Shown: one piece after another, positions 2,096-55,147 of the stretch | Layout of the letters: every line of letters starts with the position of its first letter | Position numbering within the stretch: position 1 is the stretch's first letter | Notes under the pieces: generated by a model | What the model was told of the DNA's origin: nothing | Seen by the model: the letters and a program-made list of their open reading frames with translations, nothing else | Database searches by the model: none | Made by a program: the position numbers and the translations under genes | Source: an uncultured Micavibrio sp. | Lineage (GTDB): Bacteria; Pseudomonadota; Alphaproteobacteria; Micavibrionales; UBA1664 | Length of the DNA: 64,000 nucleotides | Reading direction: 5' to 3' | Assembly: GCA_964531715.1 (NCBI GenBank) | Contig: CAZHEE010000002.1 | Span: forward strand, 97,676-161,675

Positions 2096-3841
2096 TTGGC
2101 CTATATCAATCTTTTTAAAGAGCTTTGGAAATATGCGGATGGCTTTCGGTGGAAGGTTGTAACATTCCTTATTCTGCACATGATTGCGCACCTTTCAACG
2201 ATTGCTCAACCTCTTGTATTTGCGCAAATTTTGAATGCATTGCAAAACCAAAATGATGAAATTATTGAAATTGTGCTCGGTTGGCTTGCAGTATGGGTCG
2301 GGCTTTTTGTATGGTTTAACATATTTCATAGACTTGCAAATTACTTTTGCTATGATGTCAGCTATTGTGTAAAGCAAGCTTATTTTAATGATTATTATGG
2401 CATACTAACTAAGCTACCTTTGGCTTGGCATTCAAATTACCATTCGGGAAGTACAATTAACCGTGTAAACACAGCCGCCGATGCACTGTTTAACTTCACT
2501 ATTAATCATTATCAATATGTAACTTTTTTCATGCTGTTTTGGGGACCATTGATTGCCTTGTTATTTTTGTCTTGGCAGGTCTCTTTAATTACTTTTGTTA
2601 TTGCCATTCTAAGCATATTTGCGATGAGAGTATTTGATAAAAAACTCGTTGTTTTATACAGAAATATGAATGATATACAGCATAAAGTATCCTCTGTATT
2701 TTATGATTATGTTTCAAATATTAAAACGATTATTACGCTGCGCCTTGGTCGCCATACGTTAAAAGATTTTAACCAACAAATTGAGAAAGGCTATGCGCCC
2801 TATATGCAAGCCGAAAGTAGAGTTAATCAATGGAAGTGGCTAACAGTAACATTTGGTGTTCTTGTCATGGAAGCTGGCGTTATTCTCTATTATATATGGG
2901 AGCAATTGAGCCGTGGGGGCACAGTTATGGTTGGTAATGTCGCTGCTGTCTTTCAATATGTTCAACAAGTGAGTAAAACTTATATGGATATAGCCGGAAA
3001 CTACCAACAAATAATTGCATGGCGTACAGATTTTGAAACAGCGAAGCCTATTAAAGACAGCCTTGTTGTAAGTCATTATACGGGTCATGCCGTAACTGAT
3101 TGGCAGGCAATCAAAATAGACAGCTTGAATTTTTCCTATGATGCAGGGAAGAAAACTTTGCGGGACTTTCACCTTTTATTTTCAAAAGGTGAGCGTATCG
3201 CACTTATCGGTGAAAGTGGATCAGGGAAGTCCTCCGTTATGGCAATTTTGCGAGGTCTTTATGAGCCTGAGACTGTTCATTTAACACTTGATGGCGAGAA
3301 CCATGAAAGCTTGTCGCCGCTTTTTGAAACAACCACTCTCATTCCGCAAGAGCCCGAAATTTTTGAAAATACTATTCTTTATAATATCACTTTCGGGGTC
3401 GATTATTCCGAGGTCGATGTCGACAATGCGATAAAACTTGCTTGTTTTGACCGCGTTCTGGCGAGGCTTCCGAATGGGTTACAAACGGATGTCCGCGAAA
3501 AGGGGGTGAGTTTATCAGGCGGTGAACGGCAAAGGCTGGCATTGGCGCGAGGAATTCTGGCCGCTAAAAACAGTTCCATTATTCTGATGGACGAGCCGAC
3601 CTCATCCGTGGATGCGCATAACGAGCTGGTGATTTACGAGAACATCTTTGAGCATTTCAAAGACCGTACTGTGATCTCCTCAATCCATCGGCTGCATTTG
3701 CTCGGCAAATTCGACTTGGTTATCGTGATGGATCAAGGAAAGATAGTGCAAAGCGGGACGTTTAAAGACCTTAAATCGCAAGAGGGTCTTTTCCAAAAGC
3801 TCTGGGATAAGTATCAAGAAAGCGCGAAGGAAGATAGTTAA
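2096..3841 (+). CDS. ABC transporter, fused permease/ATP-binding protein
   Basis: 581 aa with a hydrophobic N-terminal half. Walker A GESGSGKSS, signature LSGGERQRLALAR, Walker B IILMDEPTS. TTG start 5 nt after the rimK-like stop. Confidence 0.85.
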   Translation: MAYINLFKELWKYADGFRWKVVTFLILHMIAHLSTIAQPLVFAQILNALQNQNDEIIEIVLGWLAVWVGLFVWFNIFHRLANYFCYDVSYCVKQAYFNDYYGILTKLPLAWHSNYHSGSTINRVNTAADALFNFTINHYQYVTFFMLFWGPLIALLFLSWQVSLITFVIAILSIFAMRVFDKKLVVLYRNMNDIQHKVSSVFYDYVSNIKTIITLRLGRHTLKDFNQQIEKGYAPYMQAESRVNQWKWLTVTFGVLVMEAGVILYYIWEQLSRGGTVMVGNVAAVFQYVQQVSKTYMDIAGNYQQIIAWRTDFETAKPIKDSLVVSHYTGHAVTDWQAIKIDSLNFSYDAGKKTLRDFHLLFSKGERIALIGESGSGKSSVMAILRGLYEPETVHLTLDGENHESLSPLFETTTLIPQEPEIFENTILYNITFGVDYSEVDVDNAIKLACFDRVLARLPNGLQTDVREKGVSLSGGERQRLALARGILAAKNSSIILMDEPTSSVDAHNELVIYENIFEHFKDRTVISSIHRLHLLGKFDLVIVMDQGKIVQSGTFKDLKSQEGLFQKLWDKYQESAKEDS

Positions 3842-3844
3842 AAC

Positions 3845-3896
3845 TGGTGCTGCCGAGGAGAATTGAACTCCCGGCCTCACCCTTACCAAGGGTGAG
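3845..3896 (-). pseudogene. Orphan 3' half of tRNA-Thr(GGU): anticodon arm, T arm, acceptor 3' strand and CCA
   Basis: The reverse complement reads CTCACCCTTGGTAAGGGTGAGGCCGGGAGTTCAATTCTCCTCGGCAGCACCA. The anticodon loop is TTGGTAA. The sequence 5' of it (3897..3920) cannot form a D arm or pair with the acceptor 3' strand. Confidence 0.7.
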
Positions 3897-4065
3897 ATTA
3901 TATGCATATTGCTATAATCAACGTTGTTCAAAATAAAATTAGGGTGTAAAATTTTATAATTTCGCCGCAACAGTTTGAAGCAATTATAATATCAACAATT
4001 ATAGCAGTATTTAATAGCTAATCAGATATAATTAGCTATATATGTAAATATAAACAATCCAAAAA

Positions 4066-4142
<77 letters not shown>

Positions 4143-4148
4143 TTTCGA

Positions 4149-5264
4149 TTAATCATCGAATGAGACTGGTTTATAATCCATCTTTAAGGCATCCGCAACC
4201 GCTTTATGCGTGATTTCGCCATTTTTTACATTCAACCCTGCGGCGAAGCCATCATCATTACGCAAAGCCTGTTTCCATCCTTTATTGGCAAGTTCCAATA
4301 TATAAGGGAAGGTTGCTTGATTGAGCGCCTCTGTCGCCGTTAAAGGATATGCACCCGGCATGTTGGCCACACAATAATGCATGATCCCCTCCTCCATATA
4401 AACAGGATTTTCGTGCGTTGTCGGGCGTGATGTCTCAAAACATCCGCCTTGGTCAATCGCAATATCAACCATCAATGCGCTTGGTTTCATAATTTTCAGA
4501 TGCTTACGCTTTACAAGTTTGGGGGCTGAGGCTCCCGGAATAAGAACCGCCCCTATCACCATATCGGCATTCGGCAAAAGGCTTTTAATGGTCGCTTCTG
4601 TCGATTTTATAATTAAAGCCTTATTGCCGAAATAGCCTTGAAGCTCTGCTATACGCTCATCACTGATTTCCAAAATAGTCACTTTGCCCATCATACCAAC
4701 GGCGATTTGTGCCGCGTTGAACCCTGCCGTACCACCGCCTAAGATAAGAACCTCTTGCGATGGTGTGCCTTTCACTCCGCTAATCAAATGTCCGCGCCCG
4801 CCGAAATGTTTTGCACTGTACACCGCACCCATCAATGGAGCCATGCGCCCCGCCACTTCCGACATGGGTTGAAGTAGCGGCAAGCCTTTACCATCTTCAC
4901 CAGTGATTGTCTCATAAGCAATGGCGATACAGCCCGAGTCTATTAATCCTCTCGCCTGAACAGGGTCGGGAGCGAGGTGCAAATAGGTAAAAATAATCTG
5001 GTTTTTGCTGAGCATCGCACATTCGGATGGCTGAGGCTCCTTTATCTTCACAATCATCTCGGCCTGATCAAAGACAGTTTTCGCGTCAGGGAGAATTTTT
5101 GCACCAACCACTTGATAATCTTCATTCGATGCAAAAATACCAAGCCCGGCATTTGACTGCACAAGAACCTCATGCCCTGCCTTAACTAACTCACCGACAT
5201 AGCGGGGCGTTAAACCGACACGGTTTTCATTATTTTTAATTTCAGTCGGGATACCAATAATCAT
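4149..5264 (-). CDS. ald: Alanine dehydrogenase
   Basis: 371 aa. N-terminus MIIGIPTEIKNNENRVGLTP and the Rossmann motif ILGGGTAGFNAA are typical of Ald. Confidence 0.85.
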   Translation of the reverse strand: MIIGIPTEIKNNENRVGLTPRYVGELVKAGHEVLVQSNAGLGIFASNEDYQVVGAKILPDAKTVFDQAEMIVKIKEPQPSECAMLSKNQIIFTYLHLAPDPVQARGLIDSGCIAIAYETITGEDGKGLPLLQPMSEVAGRMAPLMGAVYSAKHFGGRGHLISGVKGTPSQEVLILGGGTAGFNAAQIAVGMMGKVTILEISDERIAELQGYFGNKALIIKSTEATIKSLLPNADMVIGAVLIPGASAPKLVKRKHLKIMKPSALMVDIAIDQGGCFETSRPTTHENPVYMEEGIMHYCVANMPGAYPLTATEALNQATFPYILELANKGWKQALRNDDGFAAGLNVKNGEITHKAVADALKMDYKPVSFDD

Positions 5265-45369: not shown

Positions 45370-45444
45370 GGGTTGTTAGCTCAGGGGTAGAGCACTTGCT
45401 CGACACGCAAGGGGTCACTGGTTCAATCCCAGTACAACCCACCA
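45370..45444 (+). tRNA. tRNA-Val (anticodon GAC); position 33 reads C
   Basis: 75 nt. Acceptor GGGTTGT/ACAACCC, anticodon stem CTTGC/GCAAG, loop TCGACAC, T loop TTCAATC, encoded CCA. Confidence 0.85.
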
Positions 45445-45448
45445 TTTT
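45430..45448 (+). repeat. attL: 19-bp direct repeat CAGTACAACCCACCATTTT (3' end of tRNA-Val)
   Basis: Identical 19-mer recurs at 55129..55147. Confidence 0.85.
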
Positions 45449-45612: not shown

Positions 45613-46848
45613 ATGAAATTAACGAACATAGAGTGTAAGAATGCGCCGCTTAAAAACAAGCCTTATAAGCTTGCTGATGGTGGTGGACTGTATCTTTTAA
45701 TCAATCCAAACGGATCAAAACTATGGCGTTTGAAGTATTATTTTCTTCAAAAAGAGAAAACTTTCGCCATAGGGCAATACCCCATTATAACCTTGAAAGA
45801 AGCTAGAGAAGCCCGTGAAGATGCGAAAAGGCTTATTACCAAGGGCACTGATCCCTCAAAGAATAAACAGGAAAACAAAACAGCCGCAATCAGAAACGTT
45901 GAAAATACATTTAAGGCCGTTGCATTAGAATGGCACGAAACCAAGAAAAGCGGCTGGTCGGATAATTATGCCCGTAAAATGATGCAGGGATTGGAAAAGA
46001 ACCTGTTCCCCTTCATTGGCAATCGCCCTATCAAAGACATTACACCGCCTGAATTACTAGACGTACTGCGAAAGATTGAAGGGCGCGGATCGTTGGACAT
46101 TGCGGGACGCACAAAGCAGATATGCGGACAGGTATTCCGTTATGGCATCCAAACGGGCAAATGTGAATGGGATATTGCCTTAAACCTAACAGGAGCATTA
46201 AAGACGCATAAGAAAGAGCATTTCCGTACATTAGAGACTAATCAACTGCCGGACTTCCTGCGTGCCTTGGAACGGAATGAAGCGCGGATATTTGAACGCA
46301 CACGCCGCGCCGTTTATTTATCCCTCTATACATTTTGCCGCCCAAAAGAAATTCGCATGGCACGATGGCAAGATATCGACTTTGATAACGCTCAATGGTC
46401 AATCCCTGCGGAGATCATGAAGATGAAAAAACCGCACCTTGTGCCACTATCTAAACAGGCATTGGATGTTTTACACGCCCAACGTGAAGAATTAGAGGGC
46501 GTTAAGACAGAATGGGTATTTCCTTCACAGGTGCGATTGCGTAACCCTATGAGTGATGGCACGGTCAATAAAGCGATTAAACGCCTTGGATTCGGTCAAG
46601 ATATGGTTGCCCATGGTTTTAGAGCCTTGGCACGCACTGTGATTGCAGAAAAAATAAAATACTCTGCCGAAGTTATTGAAAAACAGCTTGCCCATAAAAC
46701 AAATAATCCTCTTGGCGAAGCGTATGACAGAACACAGTTTATCGAAGAGCGTACAAAGATGATACAACATTGGGCAGATTATGTCGATGCTGTAGCACAA
46801 GAAAATAAAGTTATTCCTGTCAATTTTGGAAAATTGCTTAATGAATAA
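45613..46848 (+). CDS. int: Tyrosine integrase, P4-like (N-terminal DUF4102-type arm-binding domain)
   Basis: 411 aa: KLADGGGLYLLINPNGSKLWRLKY, and catalytic region HGFRALARTV...LAHKTNNPLGEAYDR. Confidence 0.9.
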   Translation: MKLTNIECKNAPLKNKPYKLADGGGLYLLINPNGSKLWRLKYYFLQKEKTFAIGQYPIITLKEAREAREDAKRLITKGTDPSKNKQENKTAAIRNVENTFKAVALEWHETKKSGWSDNYARKMMQGLEKNLFPFIGNRPIKDITPPELLDVLRKIEGRGSLDIAGRTKQICGQVFRYGIQTGKCEWDIALNLTGALKTHKKEHFRTLETNQLPDFLRALERNEARIFERTRRAVYLSLYTFCRPKEIRMARWQDIDFDNAQWSIPAEIMKMKKPHLVPLSKQALDVLHAQREELEGVKTEWVFPSQVRLRNPMSDGTVNKAIKRLGFGQDMVAHGFRALARTVIAEKIKYSAEVIEKQLAHKTNNPLGEAYDRTQFIEERTKMIQHWADYVDAVAQENKVIPVNFGKLLNE

Positions 46849-48567: not shown

Positions 48568-49176
48568 GTGTGGATACATGAACTTTTTTATTCAGAATTA
48601 CCACATTATTTCGGTAAAAAAATGCAGTTAGTGACACACAGCAGTAAATATGGATATCGCCGTATGACGGTTGAGGATCTGGATTGTATCACTGTCGCAG
48701 ACTGCAAAAAAGGTTACTGTAATATTTTGTCCGGCCATCAGCGCATTTTAATATCAAAACCATCGTTATTTTCAGATGCACTGTTTATAACATTACAAAC
48801 ACAGAATTTCGACTATTTGCAGTCGATTTACCTTGAAGAGACAAAACAGCCTTTTGGTGGATCACGGCTATGGCTAAAATGCCCTGATTGCGACAGACGA
48901 TGTAACAAGCTTTATTGGCATCAATCACTATTCAGTTGCCGTGTTTGTCTTGGTTTATCTTACCGAAGCCGCCAGAGTTCATTTTTGAATTATCAGGAAC
49001 ACAAAGCTTTGAAAATTGAGCATTGGCTCGGTGAATTTTGCCACTACATGACACGCCCATTATCGGAACAAATACCATCACGGCCTAAATATATGCGTAA
49101 AAATACATATCAGAGATTGATTGTCGAACTGAATGATTGCAAATCTGGGATACAGAGCAGAAATGCCCTAATCTAG
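48568..49176 (+). CDS. Hypothetical zinc-ribbon protein
   Basis: 202 aa. CPDCDRRCNKLYWHQSLFSCRVCLGLSYRS (CxxC-N17-CxxC). Start codon uncertain. Confidence 0.45.
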   Translation: MWIHELFYSELPHYFGKKMQLVTHSSKYGYRRMTVEDLDCITVADCKKGYCNILSGHQRILISKPSLFSDALFITLQTQNFDYLQSIYLEETKQPFGGSRLWLKCPDCDRRCNKLYWHQSLFSCRVCLGLSYRSRQSSFLNYQEHKALKIEHWLGEFCHYMTRPLSEQIPSRPKYMRKNTYQRLIVELNDCKSGIQSRNALI

Positions 49177-49575
49177 TTTTGGTAAATCATCAATTCCACG
49201 ATTGCGTAAATATTTATTCATCATCAATTCAGTATCATTTGTTTCATCACTGCCATAATCTAGATCCGGAAAACGGCACATAGCCATTCGCTGGTATTTA
49301 GAACAATTTGTTTCAATAGATATGTCTGTAACATCATTTTCTTTGCAATAAACAGGCTCTATACATCTGATATCTATTCCTTCTAGTGCAAGATTTTCCC
49401 TAAAATATTTCTCAAATGTTTTAATATCCAAAGTGTTTTGAGGCTCGATGCTTTGTTTCTCTTTAAAAACAAGGAAATAATAATCGACAATAAACTGGGG
49501 ATTAAAACTGTAACGCTTAGCTAATTTTCGTGATCTTACTTGCCCTACAAATATATTATAAATTAATCTAATCAT
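49168..49575 (-). CDS. Hypothetical soluble protein (downstream gene of the two-gene cassette)
   Basis: 135 aa. The ATG overlaps the upstream gene's stop (ATGATTAG). RBS AAAGG. Confidence 0.5.
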   Translation of the reverse strand: MIRLIYNIFVGQVRSRKLAKRYSFNPQFIVDYYFLVFKEKQSIEPQNTLDIKTFEKYFRENLALEGIDIRCIEPVYCKENDVTDISIETNCSKYQRMAMCRFPDLDYGSDETNDTELMMNKYLRNRGIDDLPKLD

Positions 49576-49963
49576 GATTACCTTTCTTAAATATTAGAAT
49601 TTCTTTTTTGATGCTAAAAACAATGTGACTGACTATGACAACAGAAAAAATGCGATAAATATACACCCATGCTGGAACATTTTGACCAGATACTTCTAGT
49701 TGCCATGGATTTATTAGAGTATAAGTCAAAATGACGGTCACCAAAGATGCCACTGGATACGTTATTTTAGAAAAGTGTTTATATGTTTTTCCCAATATCC
49801 CAAGCAGTAAGCCTGTTATAAATATAGAAGGATCTAAGATAAAAGCAAAAATGCTGCCCATCATTACAGCTGCCGCATGCTTATCAACAAAAAATATTAC
49901 AAATGAAAATATAACAATTAATGGAAAAAATAGCAAATGAGGTCTCTTAAAATTCTTTAGCAT
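49568..49963 (-). CDS. Hypothetical small polytopic membrane protein (upstream gene of the cassette)
   Basis: 132 aa from the ATG at 49963 (MLKNFKRPHLLFFPLIVIF...), preceded by the RBS TAAGGAG. Several hydrophobic segments. Confidence 0.55.
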   Translation of the reverse strand: MLKNFKRPHLLFFPLIVIFSFVIFFVDKHAAAVMMGSIFAFILDPSIFITGLLLGILGKTYKHFSKITYPVASLVTVILTYTLINPWQLEVSGQNVPAWVYIYRIFSVVIVSHIVFSIKKEILIFKKGNHD

Positions 49964-49990
49964 GGTCTTTTTTCTCCTTATAATTAATAC

Positions 49991-50160
49991 GGCTACCAGA
50001 TAACTCTGGCAGCCGGGGAGTTTAGAACCATCACGTGAATGGCGTGACGTATTGACGCCATGCGCTTTTATATTTCGCCACCTCCCCGACCATAAGTCGA
50101 GAGGCAACACAGATAACGGCAGTGTCTAGAATGCCGCACGTGAAGGGTTCTAATGCCCTA
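49991..50160 (-). other. G+C-richer structured non-coding region (candidate leader RNA or recombination/binding site)
   Basis: 10-bp hairpin at 49991..50014. Hairpin ATGGCGT/ACGCCAT at 50039..50061. Long-range TAGAACC..CACGTG / CACGTG..GGTTCTA pairing. GGGGAG/CTCCCC pairing. Direct repeats CAGATAAC(N)GGCAG. Confidence 0.4.
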
Positions 50161-50263
50161 GATACGAAATCACCGCATCTATTCAGATAATCGCTTTGTG
50201 AAATCTTTAAGTCAACCTAAATTAAGCATATTAAATTAATTTGGTTTAAAACAATATACGTAA

Positions 50264-50404
50264 CATCAACCGCCTGAATTTCTAAATGCCGTTCGTCAAA
50301 ATTTAGGACATTCATCTATTGATACGACGCTATCCAGTTATGGGCGATTATCTTCGTATGACCAGCGCAGGATTATCGCCGAAAACAAAGGGCAATTCGC
50401 TTGA
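50264..50404 (+). pseudogene. C-terminal remnant of a second tyrosine recombinase
   Basis: Translates to ...NAVRQNLGHSSIDTTLSSYGRLSSYDQRRIIAENKGQFA*. LGHSSIDTT..Y is the box II / catalytic Tyr region. No upstream catalytic domain is present. Confidence 0.65.
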
Positions 50405-50653
50405 TCGCATGGGAGGGGCAATTTAACCGATGCCCCTATTCCACAAAAAATACAAACATGTCACCATAACATCATCAAATATCAAAATAATAGAATCCTA
50501 TGACCGAAGAACAAAAACAACGCCTTGACCGCAATATAAATTTGTAAGTTTTATCTATGAAAACATTACTGCTTAAAAATCGGAAAGCATGCTGTAAAAT
50601 AAAAGCCGCATCATTAACTATTTCTTTAATGTTTACATATTATATTACTTTTT

Positions 50654-51829: not shown

Positions 51830-54800
51830 TCACTTTGGTAAAAAGTCTATTTTGTCTATCTCTTGCATTACGCTTGCGGTGTCGCGGAGGGCGATTACTA
51901 TGCGTTGGTAGTGCATAATGTCATCAACCGATAGATTGCGCCCTTTGCGGTCTTTGAGCCATTTTTGCGCGGGTTGGTATCCACCGATATAAAAGTCCCA
52001 TGCACCTTGTGGCACTTCGCCGAAATATTGGGTTTCGTTGATATAGACTTTGCCGTCTTCATATCGTGGCTTGACAACCTCGTGATCGCCATCAATGGGA
52101 TAGGTTGTGATGGGTATATCTAGCGCGGATGATTCCATCAAATGCAGGGCACGAAGTTTTGCCCCTTGCTCAACCAGCGCATTATAACTTTTAACATCAT
52201 TAGGAAACGGAATACGCGGAAAGTCCGATTTTAAAAATTCGGCATAGCGTGCGCGGTATGCAGACGCATGAAGCACAGCATAAATATAATCAAACAGGCT
52301 TTCCGGCGTCACATCGGGTATGGCCATTTTAATCTTGGCGTATATTTTTGGATCGAAATTCGGAACTTTCTGCTCTACCCCATCCATGAGTAATTCATAG
52401 CGATAGAGGGGGAAAGTACAACTAATTTCAGATGTTCTGTTTGAAACAAGTGAACTTTCAACAATTCCCTTATGAATAAAAACATGGTGAAAATCCGATG
52501 ATTTTTGCTGTTTGGAGACGTTCAATCCGATATTGCCCTTATTTAGCATATGCTTCATTACTTCGCCTCTAGGCATACAATGAAACCCTTTTGATTTGCC
52601 TGTGAAATAAGTCCACTTATTATCAAATGGTCTATATGCAATTTTTTGAATATTTTCTGGATCAAGATTTGTATCTTTTAGTTCTTTTTGTGCTAAATCT
52701 ACTTTCCAATCACGGGCATCTTTACCCAAACTATATTTGGCTCTTGCATCCTCAACAGGCAAAGAAGAAAAATCATGAATAGTATTTAATAAACTTTCTT
52801 TTGTTTCGTAAATTGTAAATTTGTCACGCGCGGTTACAATGCCGACAGAATTACACGGGAACATTTTATCGAGAGAAAAACCTTTCTCATATTCGGCCAG
52901 AGTTTTAAAATCCTTGGGAACCATAAAATATTGAGGGTTTGCGGGGTTTAATACGTTCCATTTTATGTTTTGGATATTTGTTTTTTCCAATTCGTTATAT
53001 TTAGATTGACGATGACCCCACACATCAACATGGTGAATGATTGCCAAATCCTTACTTTTTTTATCGCTTTTGACCGCAATCATAATTGCAACACCAGCTT
53101 GAATATCAAAAATATTTTGATCAATGTCGCCCGATGGCGTAGTCTCTTTCTTTTTAGAATTACCATGAAGGTCGATGATATAAATATCATCAAAAGTATT
53201 CATTAAATGCCAACGCATCCCACGGAATGTTGGATTATCTAAATATGAATGGCTTGTAATATAAGCCAAAACGCCTTCGCCATTTTTTTCGACGTAATGC
53301 TCGCCCATGCGAATAAATTTGGCGTAATCATCATTAAGCCATTTGGAATTTTTCTCCTGTAACTTAATTTTTCCACCAGGCTCTTTCTTATAATCATCCA
53401 TAAGGGACATAATCCAATCACCCTTGTTTGAGCTTTCACCACTATAAGGCGGATTCCCAAATGCTACCATGATCGGCATATCGCGTTTGATACGGCTGGC
53501 CTCGTTTGCTTCCCTTGATAACCATGATGCGAATAATGTATCGGCATCGGGGTGGTGTTCCTCCAGCGCGTTTGTCAGATACACGCCAACCCTTGGTGGA
53601 TTGTTCGGGTTGGATGGTTTATATCCTGTTTCCTGTAGCAATAAATCCAATTTCATGTGGCACATGGCGTAGGAGGCCATGAGTAATTCAAAACCGTGCA
53701 GACGTGGCAACAAGTCGTTTTCGACGTAACTGCTCCATATACCTTGTTGTCCTTGATATTTTTGCCAGATTTGTTTCACGGCCTCCGCCATGAATGTGCC
53801 TGTCCCCGTTGCAACGTCCAGTAATTGCACCTTGTGGACTTCTATTTCATCCTTAATCTTTCCCTTTTTACCAACGCGGTCAGATTCGACCTTGATTTTG
53901 ATTTTGGATTTATCGGCAATGCCGTTTGGTAAATCGAAATGGATTTTTAAAACATCATCAATGGCGCGAACAATGAAATTAACGACTGGTTCGGGCGTGT
54001 ACCAAACCCGCGTGCCTTACGCAAGGATTTATCGTATTCGGCCAAGAATGTTTCATAGAAATGCAGGATAGGGTCATTCTGCCCCGTTGCCGTTCCAAAA
54101 TCCTTTAATACCGCATCCAAATCGGAAAATAAGAAGACTTCGCATAGTGCATCAACAATCCAAACGACTCGTTCATCCAATTCCGACCCTGCCACGTATA
54201 AAAATAGCTGGCGTAAGAATGGGTTTGATTTTGGGATGAGTAGTAACGCTTCGCTTCGTGAGAAATTATCGGGCGTTGTATCGTGCAGGCGTGCCGTGAA
54301 CAAGCCATAGGCGATTGTTTGGGCATAGACATCGGCAAATTGCTCTTCGTCCATGTCATGCACAAGGATATTTTGAAATGCCTTTAATTGATCTTTTAAT
54401 GAACTATCCGCTTCATCCGTTAAAACCAGCATAAAGACATGTTTCATCAATTTGGCCTTTTGCGCCATCATGGATGCCAGTTTCTTTGCCGATTTAATTG
54501 TTTGCCCTTGGAATGATGCAAAATCGATTAAGAGTGTTTTAAGGCGGTCATAGTTTTCAGGGATGGGTTGGATGGTATCGCCAACAATTTCGGCAATTTG
54601 AACCACCTCAACTTTTTTCACCATGAAGGTAAAAGCGAAATTCTAAATAATCGGTCAGGACAAGGTTATCGAGTGACTCAAGGTATCGTTTTAATTGATC
54701 CGTTTTTTCAGTTTTGGATAGGTCAATGCCAACATCCTTGGCCTCCAAATACCCAACATCAATTTTACGCCTGTGCAGGATAAAATCAGGCGCACCACAT

Positions 54801-55128: not shown

Positions 55129-55147
55129 CAGTACAACCCACCATTTT
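55129..55147 (+). repeat. attR: 19-bp direct repeat CAGTACAACCCACCATTTT
   Basis: Identical to 45430..45448. It is preceded by a degenerate T-arm-like stretch (CTTCAATTAACCAGTAG). Confidence 0.85.

Follow-up and report, generated by a model that had tools for sequence, protein, structure and literature searches.

The c4 RNA of P1 and P7 and the CI RNA of P4 recognize boxes (a1b1 or seqA) of their own leader, following an a1b1/a'b'/a2b2 logic in c4 RNA and a seqA/seqB/seqC logic in P4 CI RNA. Here we describe an element that resembles these immunity RNAs in several respects and is related to a further RNA family, sRNA-Xcc1 (Rfam RF02221). It lies in a 64,000-nucleotide (nt) stretch of contig CAZHEE010000002.1 from an uncultured Micavibrio sp. 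(assembly GCA_964531715.1), referred to here as the window, where it stands on the minus strand ahead of a cassette of two genes. Northern blotting and rapid amplification of cDNA ends have shown sRNA-Xcc1 to exist in Xanthomonas as a discrete RNA of 88 nt (PMC2996969), and in Xanthomonas integron cassettes this RNA is found upstream of the type I toxin gene symE (bioRxiv 10.1101/2025.06.18.660453). It also occurs upstream of an ORF6N gene in an APSE phage and in tandem copies in a Xylella island. We conclude with high confidence that the element in the window is the gene for a structured minus-strand RNA of about 200 nt that belongs to an sRNA-Xcc1-related family.

An original prediction, made from the letters alone, had singled out a noncoding block at 49991 to 50160 as rich in G+C and able to pair extensively with itself, and both properties hold. 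The G+C content of 50000 to 50149 is 0.52, compared with 0.27 to 0.37 in the flanking few hundred bases. The 181 nt from 49985 to 50165 fold to -77 kcal/mol as minus-strand RNA (z -5.2), to -68.8 kcal/mol as plus-strand RNA (z -5.7), and to -41 kcal/mol as DNA (z -5.9), and none of 200 dinucleotide-preserving shuffles folded as well in any of the three modes. The structure is that of a minus-strand RNA, because many conserved pairs, some of them invariant, are G-U wobbles when the minus strand is read but A-C mismatches on the plus strand, and because hairpins in the homologues are capped by UNCG, GNRA, or CUUG tetraloops, which are of the RNA type. The prediction had favored a structured 5' leader read from the minus strand; the minus-only G-U pairs and the tetraloops agree with this, as do a predicted promoter and terminator on the same strand and, in most homologues, a spacing of 48 to 67 nt to the following open reading frame (ORF). 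The conserved element exceeds the block first reported and extends from about 50180 to about 49980. Similarity searches with a 191-nt block found no match in plasmids, E. coli genomes, or phage records, and the window holds no second copy, tandem or dispersed.

We collected homologues by one protein-neighbor look-up and three pattern scans on the conserved stems; two further viral pattern scans added nothing. The resulting set comprises 57 distinct homologous sequences, mostly from Alphaproteobacteria, together with one viral contig (L005) and metagenome contigs. In L005 the element stands ahead of an unrelated lipoprotein-like ORF, and one of the five metagenome contigs that carry the element duplicates L005. 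The window locus itself is also present on JGI metagenome contigs. The genome scan found the element in 50 genomes, nearly all alphaproteobacterial (Rhodobacteraceae, Hyphomicrobiales, and Micavibrio), with a few other metagenome-assembled genomes (MAGs), one of them labelled Gammaproteobacteria; two further matches (L062 and L064) proved to be antisense tRNA-Pro genes and were discarded. The family has two subtypes, type A, which includes the window, and type B, which is found mainly in Rhodobacteraceae.

The relation to sRNA-Xcc1 emerged from covariance model searches. An Rfam comparison had been suggested with the original prediction; a scan of the whole window at curated thresholds returned nothing for the element, while a permissive search of 801 nt (49700 to 50500) matched RF02221 on the minus strand with 34.1 bits (E 4.9e-4; 50004 to 50090, model positions 1 to 87), below the gathering cut-off of 53 bits. 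Other type-A members gave similar results over the same core, with 45 bits for L005 and 37 to 49 bits for all eight further members tested, and type B scored about 28 bits or was not matched. At the Rfam cut-off, none of 18 loci from Alphaproteobacteria and other MAGs was annotated as sRNA-Xcc1. Because the type-A relatives score below threshold over the same core, the window family is a divergent sRNA-Xcc1 branch that the reference model does not capture.

We built MAFFT alignments of 20 type-A and 30 type-B sequences without reference to structure, and the structure was then named by the analyst. Read 5' to 3', it consists of two hairpins (S0 and S1), a short box (U), a local pseudoknot (PK1), a segment A, a core in which an outer stem A':B encloses hairpins H1 and H2, and a terminator-like hairpin T (Table 1). 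Two long-range pairings connect the core to the 5' part: PK2, between box U and the H2 loop, and PK3, between the S1 loop and the linker J that follows H2. This structure is strongly supported by the alignments, with 93 to 95% of cells paired in type A and 96% in type B, compared with 31 to 61% and 31 to 49%, respectively, when the 3' partners were slid. Pairs altered on both sides numbered 20 to 25 in type A (4 to 11 in slid controls) and 25 to 28 in type B (7 to 12 in slid controls). For every measure except one, none of 500 shuffles attained the observed pairing values.

Support is distributed over the individual helices. The outer stem A':B is 100% paired, and two of its pairs are fully compensated in L018 and L023. 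H1 is 98% and H2 92% paired, and H1, H2, and T each hold compensatory pairs; the internal loop of H1 is wholly different between types A and B. S1 is 92 to 99% paired in the family alignments, and the type-B equivalent of S0 is 89% paired, with four of its five pairs altered on both sides. In PK1, helix a is 100% paired in type A with three of six pairs compensatory, and helix b is 89 to 96% paired with two to four pairs altered on both sides; the MAFFT alignment places the window's helix b one register off, and this helix was assigned by eye. PK2 is 95 to 98% paired, all five of its pairs are compensatory, and up to five or six pair types occur per position. PK3 is about 98.3% paired in type B, where three of six pairs are compensatory, and has five of six compensatory pairs in type A. 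The three long-range pairings thus covary, as the covariation check proposed with the original prediction had sought, and PK2 and PK3 are the most strongly covarying pairings of the family.

All the pairings listed in the original prediction are present in the sequence, and most correspond to parts of this structure. Its hairpin at 49991 to 50014 is T, terminator-like, with 11 pairs and conserved with compensatory changes. Both halves of its long-range pairing are real, CACGTG/CACGTG as PK2 and TTAGAACC/GGTTCTAA as PK3, and its GGGGAG/CTCCCC pairing is the outer stem A':B. These had been proposed as mutually exclusive, alternative folds; since they cross and both are conserved, they form a pseudoknot instead. 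The ATGGCGT/ACGCCAT pairing is found in the window, but it is incompatible with H1 and H2 and not conserved among the homologues, and the 8-nt direct repeat, although present, lies in loops that vary between homologues and is most likely due to chance. We also considered a hairpin of A with A' as a conserved alternative to A':B, and rejected it. This hairpin is present in the minimum-energy fold and is 90.5% paired in the family, but it shows no compensatory changes, and the changes to A' in L018 and L023 break it. It is at most a possible transient fold, and weakly supported.

PK2 is set apart by how quickly it changes. Its columns have an entropy of 1.5 bits, compared with 0.35 to 0.5 for the other core columns, and 14 to 15 distinct box sequences occur among 20 to 30 members; the code of L005, for example, is UCCGAGA. 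L030 and L026 are 98.7% identical outside PK2, yet differ at six of ten PK2 positions with complementarity kept. A de novo search likewise found the 7-mer match at the position of box U in most homologues. Because the changes are so concentrated and coordinated, selection for distinct specificities seems more likely than drift. Separately, one MAG (JBCCRB01) carries two copies of the element, L041 and L071, with different box/loop codes.

Comparison with canonical sRNA-Xcc1 loci showed that equivalent pairings exist there, outside the Rfam model. In E. coli prophages, true sRNA-Xcc1 (79.6 to 79.8 bits) lies about 40 nt upstream of ORF6N/BRO-N genes, past a consensus-like promoter. In 10 of 11 distinct phage-contig loci (L081, L084, L092, L096, L099, L150, L152, L153, L157, and L170), the 7-mer of the H2 loop is exactly complementary to two identical boxes, one after the 5' hairpin and the other overlapping the ribosome-binding site of the ORF that follows. 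In the eleventh locus one of the pairs is a G-U. The 7-mers are of eight kinds, and E. coli prophage L007 has a ninth. In addition, the loop of the canonical 5' hairpin can pair with the linker after H2 (CUCAAAA with UUUUGAG, for example), and in loci of the enterobacterial type this loop is repeated in a small hairpin just past the core. We found no description of the two-box pairing of the H2 loop in the literature searched.

The window family therefore can be set beside true sRNA-Xcc1 part by part. Both have an outer stem that encloses a hairpin with an A/U-rich internal loop (AAUAYAAUA in sRNA-Xcc1) and a second hairpin, although the window's internal loop AAAUAUAAAA matches the sRNA-Xcc1 sequence AAUACAAUA only partly. 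Both lie directly upstream of a same-strand ORF in a mobile element, and the loop-box pairing of H2 and the pairing of the 5' hairpin loop with the linker are shared with the loci of L006, L007, and the phage contigs. Unlike sRNA-Xcc1, the window family lacks a second box over the ribosome-binding site and a repeat of the S1 loop after the core, has a strong terminator hairpin between the core and the ORF, and carries PK1 where canonical leaders carry a hairpin with a U-run. The cargo also differs, being envelope proteins in the window family and ORF6N, BRO-N, or SymE proteins in sRNA-Xcc1.

The two-box pairing of canonical sRNA-Xcc1 is, by analogy, the box logic of the c4 and CI RNAs. Rfam matches in P4 put isrK/c4-a1b1 immediately 5' of C4 (the CI RNA), a layout also seen in true sRNA-Xcc1 loci. 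In the E. coli O104:H4 prophage L006, the isrK-C4 pair and sRNA-Xcc1 head two neighboring antirepressor-type modules: at 2963 to 4782, isrK and C4 precede a Rha gene and are followed by a promoter, true sRNA-Xcc1, an ORF6N gene, and a cell-division-inhibitor gene. Like the c4/CI RNAs (RF01695, RF03163, and isrK RF01394), the window element is a small structured RNA within the leader of its own operon, of the kind found in phages and P4-type islands. It also has an outer stem with two inner hairpins, as well as variable recognition segments that are complementary to upstream boxes of the same leader and whose specificity varies between related elements. The C4, c4-a1b1, and isrK covariance models gave no match in 49700 to 50500 at E values up to 10, with P4 and L006 matching as positive controls. 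The window element differs in what lies downstream, a membrane protein and a 135-amino-acid (aa) protein rather than the antirepressor or replication operon that the c4/CI RNAs, cut from their leader by RNase P, repress. The RNA is thus of a known kind, sRNA-Xcc1. The new parts are this branch, its full 200-nt architecture with three long-range contacts, the hypervariable box/loop pair (which we call an address below), and the link to c4/CI, none of which we found in the literature searched.

A transcription start near 50180, at the base of S0, is predicted from a sigma70-like promoter, and a promoter-like pair lies at the matching distance from S1 in 14 of 19 type-A homologues. At the other end, a terminator scan lists 50015 to 49990 as a hairpin of 11 pairs with the tail TATTAATTAT. 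As in an intrinsic terminator, this G+C-rich hairpin stands directly before a U-tract, between the promoter and the ORF, and T ends 27 nt ahead of the start codon of the first cargo gene. In 34 of 43 distinct homologues the hairpin is followed by a T-rich tail, with 5 or more T among the next 9 nt.

Table 1. Positions of the element's parts and of the two cassette genes in the window, in minus-strand 5' to 3' order
Feature	Positions	Strand	Description
Sigma70-like promoter	50187..50215	-	Predicted; TTGACT (50215-50210), 17-nt spacer, GATTAT (50192-50187); 9 of 12 matches in promoter scan
S0 hairpin	50160..50180	-	AGAUGC (50180-50175) with GUAUCU (50165-50160); read from sequence
S1 hairpin	50144..50159	-	AGGG/CCCU stem; the 5' half of PK3 is UUAGAACC (50153-50146), made up of the loop and 3' arm
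Box U	50137..50143	-	UCACGUG; 5' half of PK2; hypervariable across the family
PK1	50106..50137	-	Pseudoknot; helix a crosses helix b
PK1 helix a		-	GCGGCA (50137-50132) with UGCCGU (50121-50116)
PK1 helix b		-	GACAC (50126-50122) with GUGUU (50110-50106)
Segment A	50096..50105	-	GCCUCUCGAC; possible alternative partner of A'
Core	50011..50091	-	Outer stem of A' GGUCGGGGAG (50091-50082) with B CUCCCCGGCU (50020-50011)
H1	50081-50044	-	First hairpin inside A':B
H2	50043-50027	-	Second hairpin inside A':B; loop UCACGUG (50038-50032)
Linker J	50027-50021	-	After H2; 3' half of PK3
PK2		-	CACGUG (50142-50137) with CACGUG (50037-50032)
PK3		-	UUAGAACC (50153-50146) with GGUUCUAA (50029-50022)
Hairpin T	49980..50014	-	Terminator-like; GGCUGCCAGA-GUUA-UCUGGUAGCC (50014-49991), then U-rich tail GUAUUAAUUAU (49990-49980)
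First cargo gene	49568..49979	-	Ribosome-binding site AAGGAG (49979-49974), ATG (49963-49961); 131-aa multi-pass membrane protein (ORF 49963-49568)
Second cassette gene	49168..49575	-	135 aa; overlaps the end of the first gene; from the ORF list

Every homologue sits directly upstream of an ORF, whose start falls 48 to 67 nt after the anchor in most of the 57. The proteins encoded there form 34 BLASTP clusters, 32 of which are single proteins, and almost all are mutually unrelated. What many have in common is a likely location in the cell envelope, as a signal peptide, lipobox, or transmembrane segment is found in 21 of 26 representative downstream proteins, compared with 31% of control ORFs. 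None of the downstream proteins matched a known defense family. The variable envelope ORFs, integrases, and tRNAs in these neighborhoods show that the element heads cargo genes in integrative islands and phage-like contigs. In the window, the first cargo protein (hydrophobic segment score, 3.05) has only two known homologues, one of which is 63% identical and has the same RNA element upstream with its hairpin loops changed. Exact-protein look-ups for this protein and its identical NCBI copy gave no return, and neither cassette protein has a Pfam, PHROG, or PADLOC match. The two cassette genes are probably co-transcribed, since the second overlaps the end of the first. In L004, a 126-aa ORF follows the homologous cargo gene and corresponds to the 135-aa gene by position alone.

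Based on this architecture, we propose that the RNA acts as a gate with an address. Transcription would start near 50180 from the element's own sigma70-type promoter, and the RNA would fold into the two 5' hairpins, the local pseudoknot, and the core, which PK2 and PK3 would lock onto the 5' part. Most transcripts would stop at T, so that the two cargo genes would be expressed by read-through only and the RNA would gate their expression. The PK2 and PK3 contacts, formed within one molecule or between a processed core and the nascent leader of the same element, would determine how the leader folds and, through this, how efficient the gate is. The box/loop pair would serve as an element-specific address by which the RNA, or a trans-acting processed core, recognizes the leader of its own element only, as in c4/CI, preventing cross-talk between related elements. 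We read the pair as an address because it evolves much faster than the rest of the element yet stays complementary. Like other terminator-based leaders, this is a structured 5' leader with a hairpin and U-rich tail just before the ribosome-binding site, in which downstream expression needs read-through. Unlike attenuators and riboswitch expression platforms, it has no convincing antiterminator, as A':B overlaps T by only 3 to 5 nt and A:A' does not covary, and it serves no coherent regulon. We regard the gate-with-address mechanism as tentative, a little short of an even bet. The joint statement, that this is a structured minus-strand RNA of the sRNA-Xcc1 type and that it works by this mechanism, we consider slightly favored overall.

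Several observations weigh against this interpretation. The window's RF02221 score is under the family cut-off (34 versus 53 bits), and the invariance of A' and B among genome-scan members is partly built in, as the scan required both sequences. The promoter and terminator are consensus matches only, and the window's tail after T (5 T in 9 nt, interrupted by A) is a weak U-tract, GUAUUAAUUAU, of uncertain efficiency. Unlike the c4/CI RNAs (clan CL00128), the element has an upstream bipartite target (PK2 plus PK3) but no downstream a2b2 or seqC target. A search for a second H2-loop target, near the ribosome-binding site or elsewhere in the loci, found 35 extra copies where about 28 were expected by chance; a downstream copy of the box is absent from the window and present in 2 of 55 homologues scanned, which is the chance level. 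Hypervariable PK2 could also be a purely intramolecular tertiary contact that drifts fast. Finally, we rejected pairing of B with the ribosome-binding site as a general translational switch, since it was not above control genes (p = 0.09). Such pairing is weak in the window (-5.8 kcal/mol), although eight homologues have striking GGGGAGU sites, and L018, where B is altered, shows no compensating change. This leaves the output step as the weakest part of the model, with no box over the ribosome-binding site and no support for an anti-ribosome-binding-site role of B.

A separate observation concerns J and B. In L034, at about 195 to 215, the 15 nt immediately following the terminator hairpin (CCGGGGAGTTAGTAA) are perfectly complementary to J plus B, which looks like a one-off duplication of the A' side.

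A broader and more speculative reading is that Rfam's 87-nt sRNA-Xcc1 is the core of a larger, widespread class of leaders of about 200 nt with a programmable 7-nt address, in which the window branch has swapped the block at the ribosome-binding site for a terminator gate. The reference model would then omit the true size and fold of the RNA, about 200 nt with three pseudoknot-type contacts. If so, the class would span phages, satellites, and integrative islands of Alpha- and Gammaproteobacteria, and a family that annotation pipelines label as a trans-acting virulence sRNA would be a cis-encoded gatekeeper of mobile-element cargo. The c4/CI immunity principle would then reach beyond the control of antirepressors and replication to accessory genes. 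Each element would control its own cargo independently of related elements in the same cell, and the address may be what allows several related islands or prophages that share a cell to regulate their accessory genes separately. The hypervariable, always complementary 7-nt pair would offer a testable case of orthogonal RNA addresses evolving in nature. The element would also mark envelope proteins of unknown function as regulated cargo and as candidates for superinfection exclusion or lysogenic conversion.

Other explanations of the element were weighed against the gate. It could be an independent sRNA gene that ends at T and acts in trans on mRNAs elsewhere, with the downstream ORF a mere neighbor. 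The Xanthomonas sRNA-Xcc1 was detected as a discrete 88-nt RNA (PMC2996969), and the element has its own promoter-like site and terminator-like end. We nevertheless consider this unlikely: the 48- to 67-nt spacing to the ORF start is kept in most homologues though the ORFs are mostly unrelated, the variable loop complements a box in its own leader rather than a conserved external target, and a second target is not enriched within the loci examined. A riboswitch, or another leader that senses a ligand or protein, with the pseudoknotted 5' domain as sensor and T as expression platform, would account for the complex fold with its three long-range pairings, for conserved unpaired stretches such as GAAUAUAAUAGCG, and for a terminator directly before the ORF. 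AlpA of Pseudomonas is an antiterminator and could supply the read-through at T; AlpA-family regulators are encoded in the window's island, and L058 and L073 have AlpA homologues close to the element. The original prediction had offered a riboswitch-like reading, and the metabolite form of it has no support: the regulated genes fall into 34 clusters, almost all unrelated and without a shared pathway. Moreover, the H1 internal loop, the expected binding pocket, is not conserved between the two subtypes, and the most variable positions are paired, a better fit to a recognition code than to a ligand pocket. A sensing leader of any kind is therefore quite improbable.

The order of promoter, RNA, terminator, and ORF also resembles that of ToxIN-type loci, and the cargo is a small multi-pass membrane protein, as in a type I- or III-like toxin-antitoxin arrangement in which an RNA antitoxin or repressor and a leaky terminator precede a toxic product. 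A toxin gene does follow sRNA-Xcc1 in Xanthomonas cassettes, namely the type I toxin symE (bioRxiv 10.1101/2025.06.18.660453). However, there are no tandem RNA repeats of the ToxI-like type III kind, complementarity to the ORF or its ribosome-binding site is not beyond chance, and the cargo, which includes lipoproteins and secreted proteins, is too diverse for one fold to neutralize, making this reading highly improbable. Hardly credible, in our view, is an element that works as DNA, whether a recombination or attachment site, an attC-like site, a single-strand origin, or a miniature inverted-repeat transposable element (MITE) derived from the degraded integrase. The element does lie in a tRNA-Val island, at about 100 bp from the remnant of an integrase, it folds well as DNA (z -5.9), and sRNA-Xcc1 was first found in integron cassettes. 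Yet on the other strand many of the conserved G-U pairs would become A-C mismatches, the UNCG, GNRA, and CUUG loops favor RNA, and the window has one copy of the element, for which plasmids, phages, and E. coli gave no match. Most homologues have no adjoining integrase remnant, so the suggestion in the original prediction of a site left by the second integrase is not supported, and no match to a known insertion sequence (IS) or MITE terminus, which that prediction had named as contrary evidence, was found. The gate with an address remains our preferred reading.

Two specific candidates were examined and rejected. An integron attC site does not fit, as there are no GTTRRRY (R'/R'') cores, the outer inverted repeat GGTTCTAA/TTAGAACC differs, and the window has a single copy. 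A plus-strand tRNA-like structure or tRNA-Pro fragment does not fit either: ARAGORN and Rfam find no tRNA at this position, and the orientation of the family is against it. In this connection, 50082 to 50092 on the minus strand, UGGUCGGGGAG, is the exact complement of a tRNA-Pro 3' end including CCA, and the antisense tRNA-Pro genes in L062 and L064 are preceded by GGCAGC. We treat both as coincidence.

The island around the element begins with tRNA-Val(GAC) at 45370 to 45444, followed by a P4-type integrase (45613 to 46848), an AlpA-family gene, and a replication-initiator-like gene. A 19-nt direct repeat of the tRNA-Val(GAC) 3' end, CAGTACAACCCACCATTTT, is found at 45430 to 45448 and again at 55129 to 55147, giving an island of about 9.7 kb that encloses the element. 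The remnant of a second integrase lies at 50268 to 50403 on the plus strand, about 100 nt from the element. It fuses a stretch like the middle of the intact integrase (16-nt match to 46044 to 46059) to the C-terminal LGHSSIDTT...Y motif and is thus both truncated and missing internal sequence. Farther along, in the island's distal half, a Type IIG/ISP restriction-methylase is split over two minus-strand ORFs, at 51830 to 53830 and 53947 to 54624 (PADLOC REase_MTase_IIG, E 2.8e-220 and 1.4e-61), and is apparently a broken gene.

Related settings are found around other members of the family. In the window and in L027, L035, L058, L061, and L073, a P4-type integrase lies 3 to 7 kb beyond the element in convergent orientation. 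In at least six type-B loci (L028, L030, L038, L039, L044, and L045), mostly from Rhodobacteraceae, tRNA-Thr(CGU) on the same strand precedes the element by about 200 nt. L030 and L045 also have a P4-type primase-like gene 1 to 2.5 kb beyond the element, as do the type-B loci L026, L037, L046, and L070. In L038, the transmembrane-protein gene of its relatives is present as a truncated copy with an IS21-like transposase ORF behind it, which suggests an IS insertion into the cargo.

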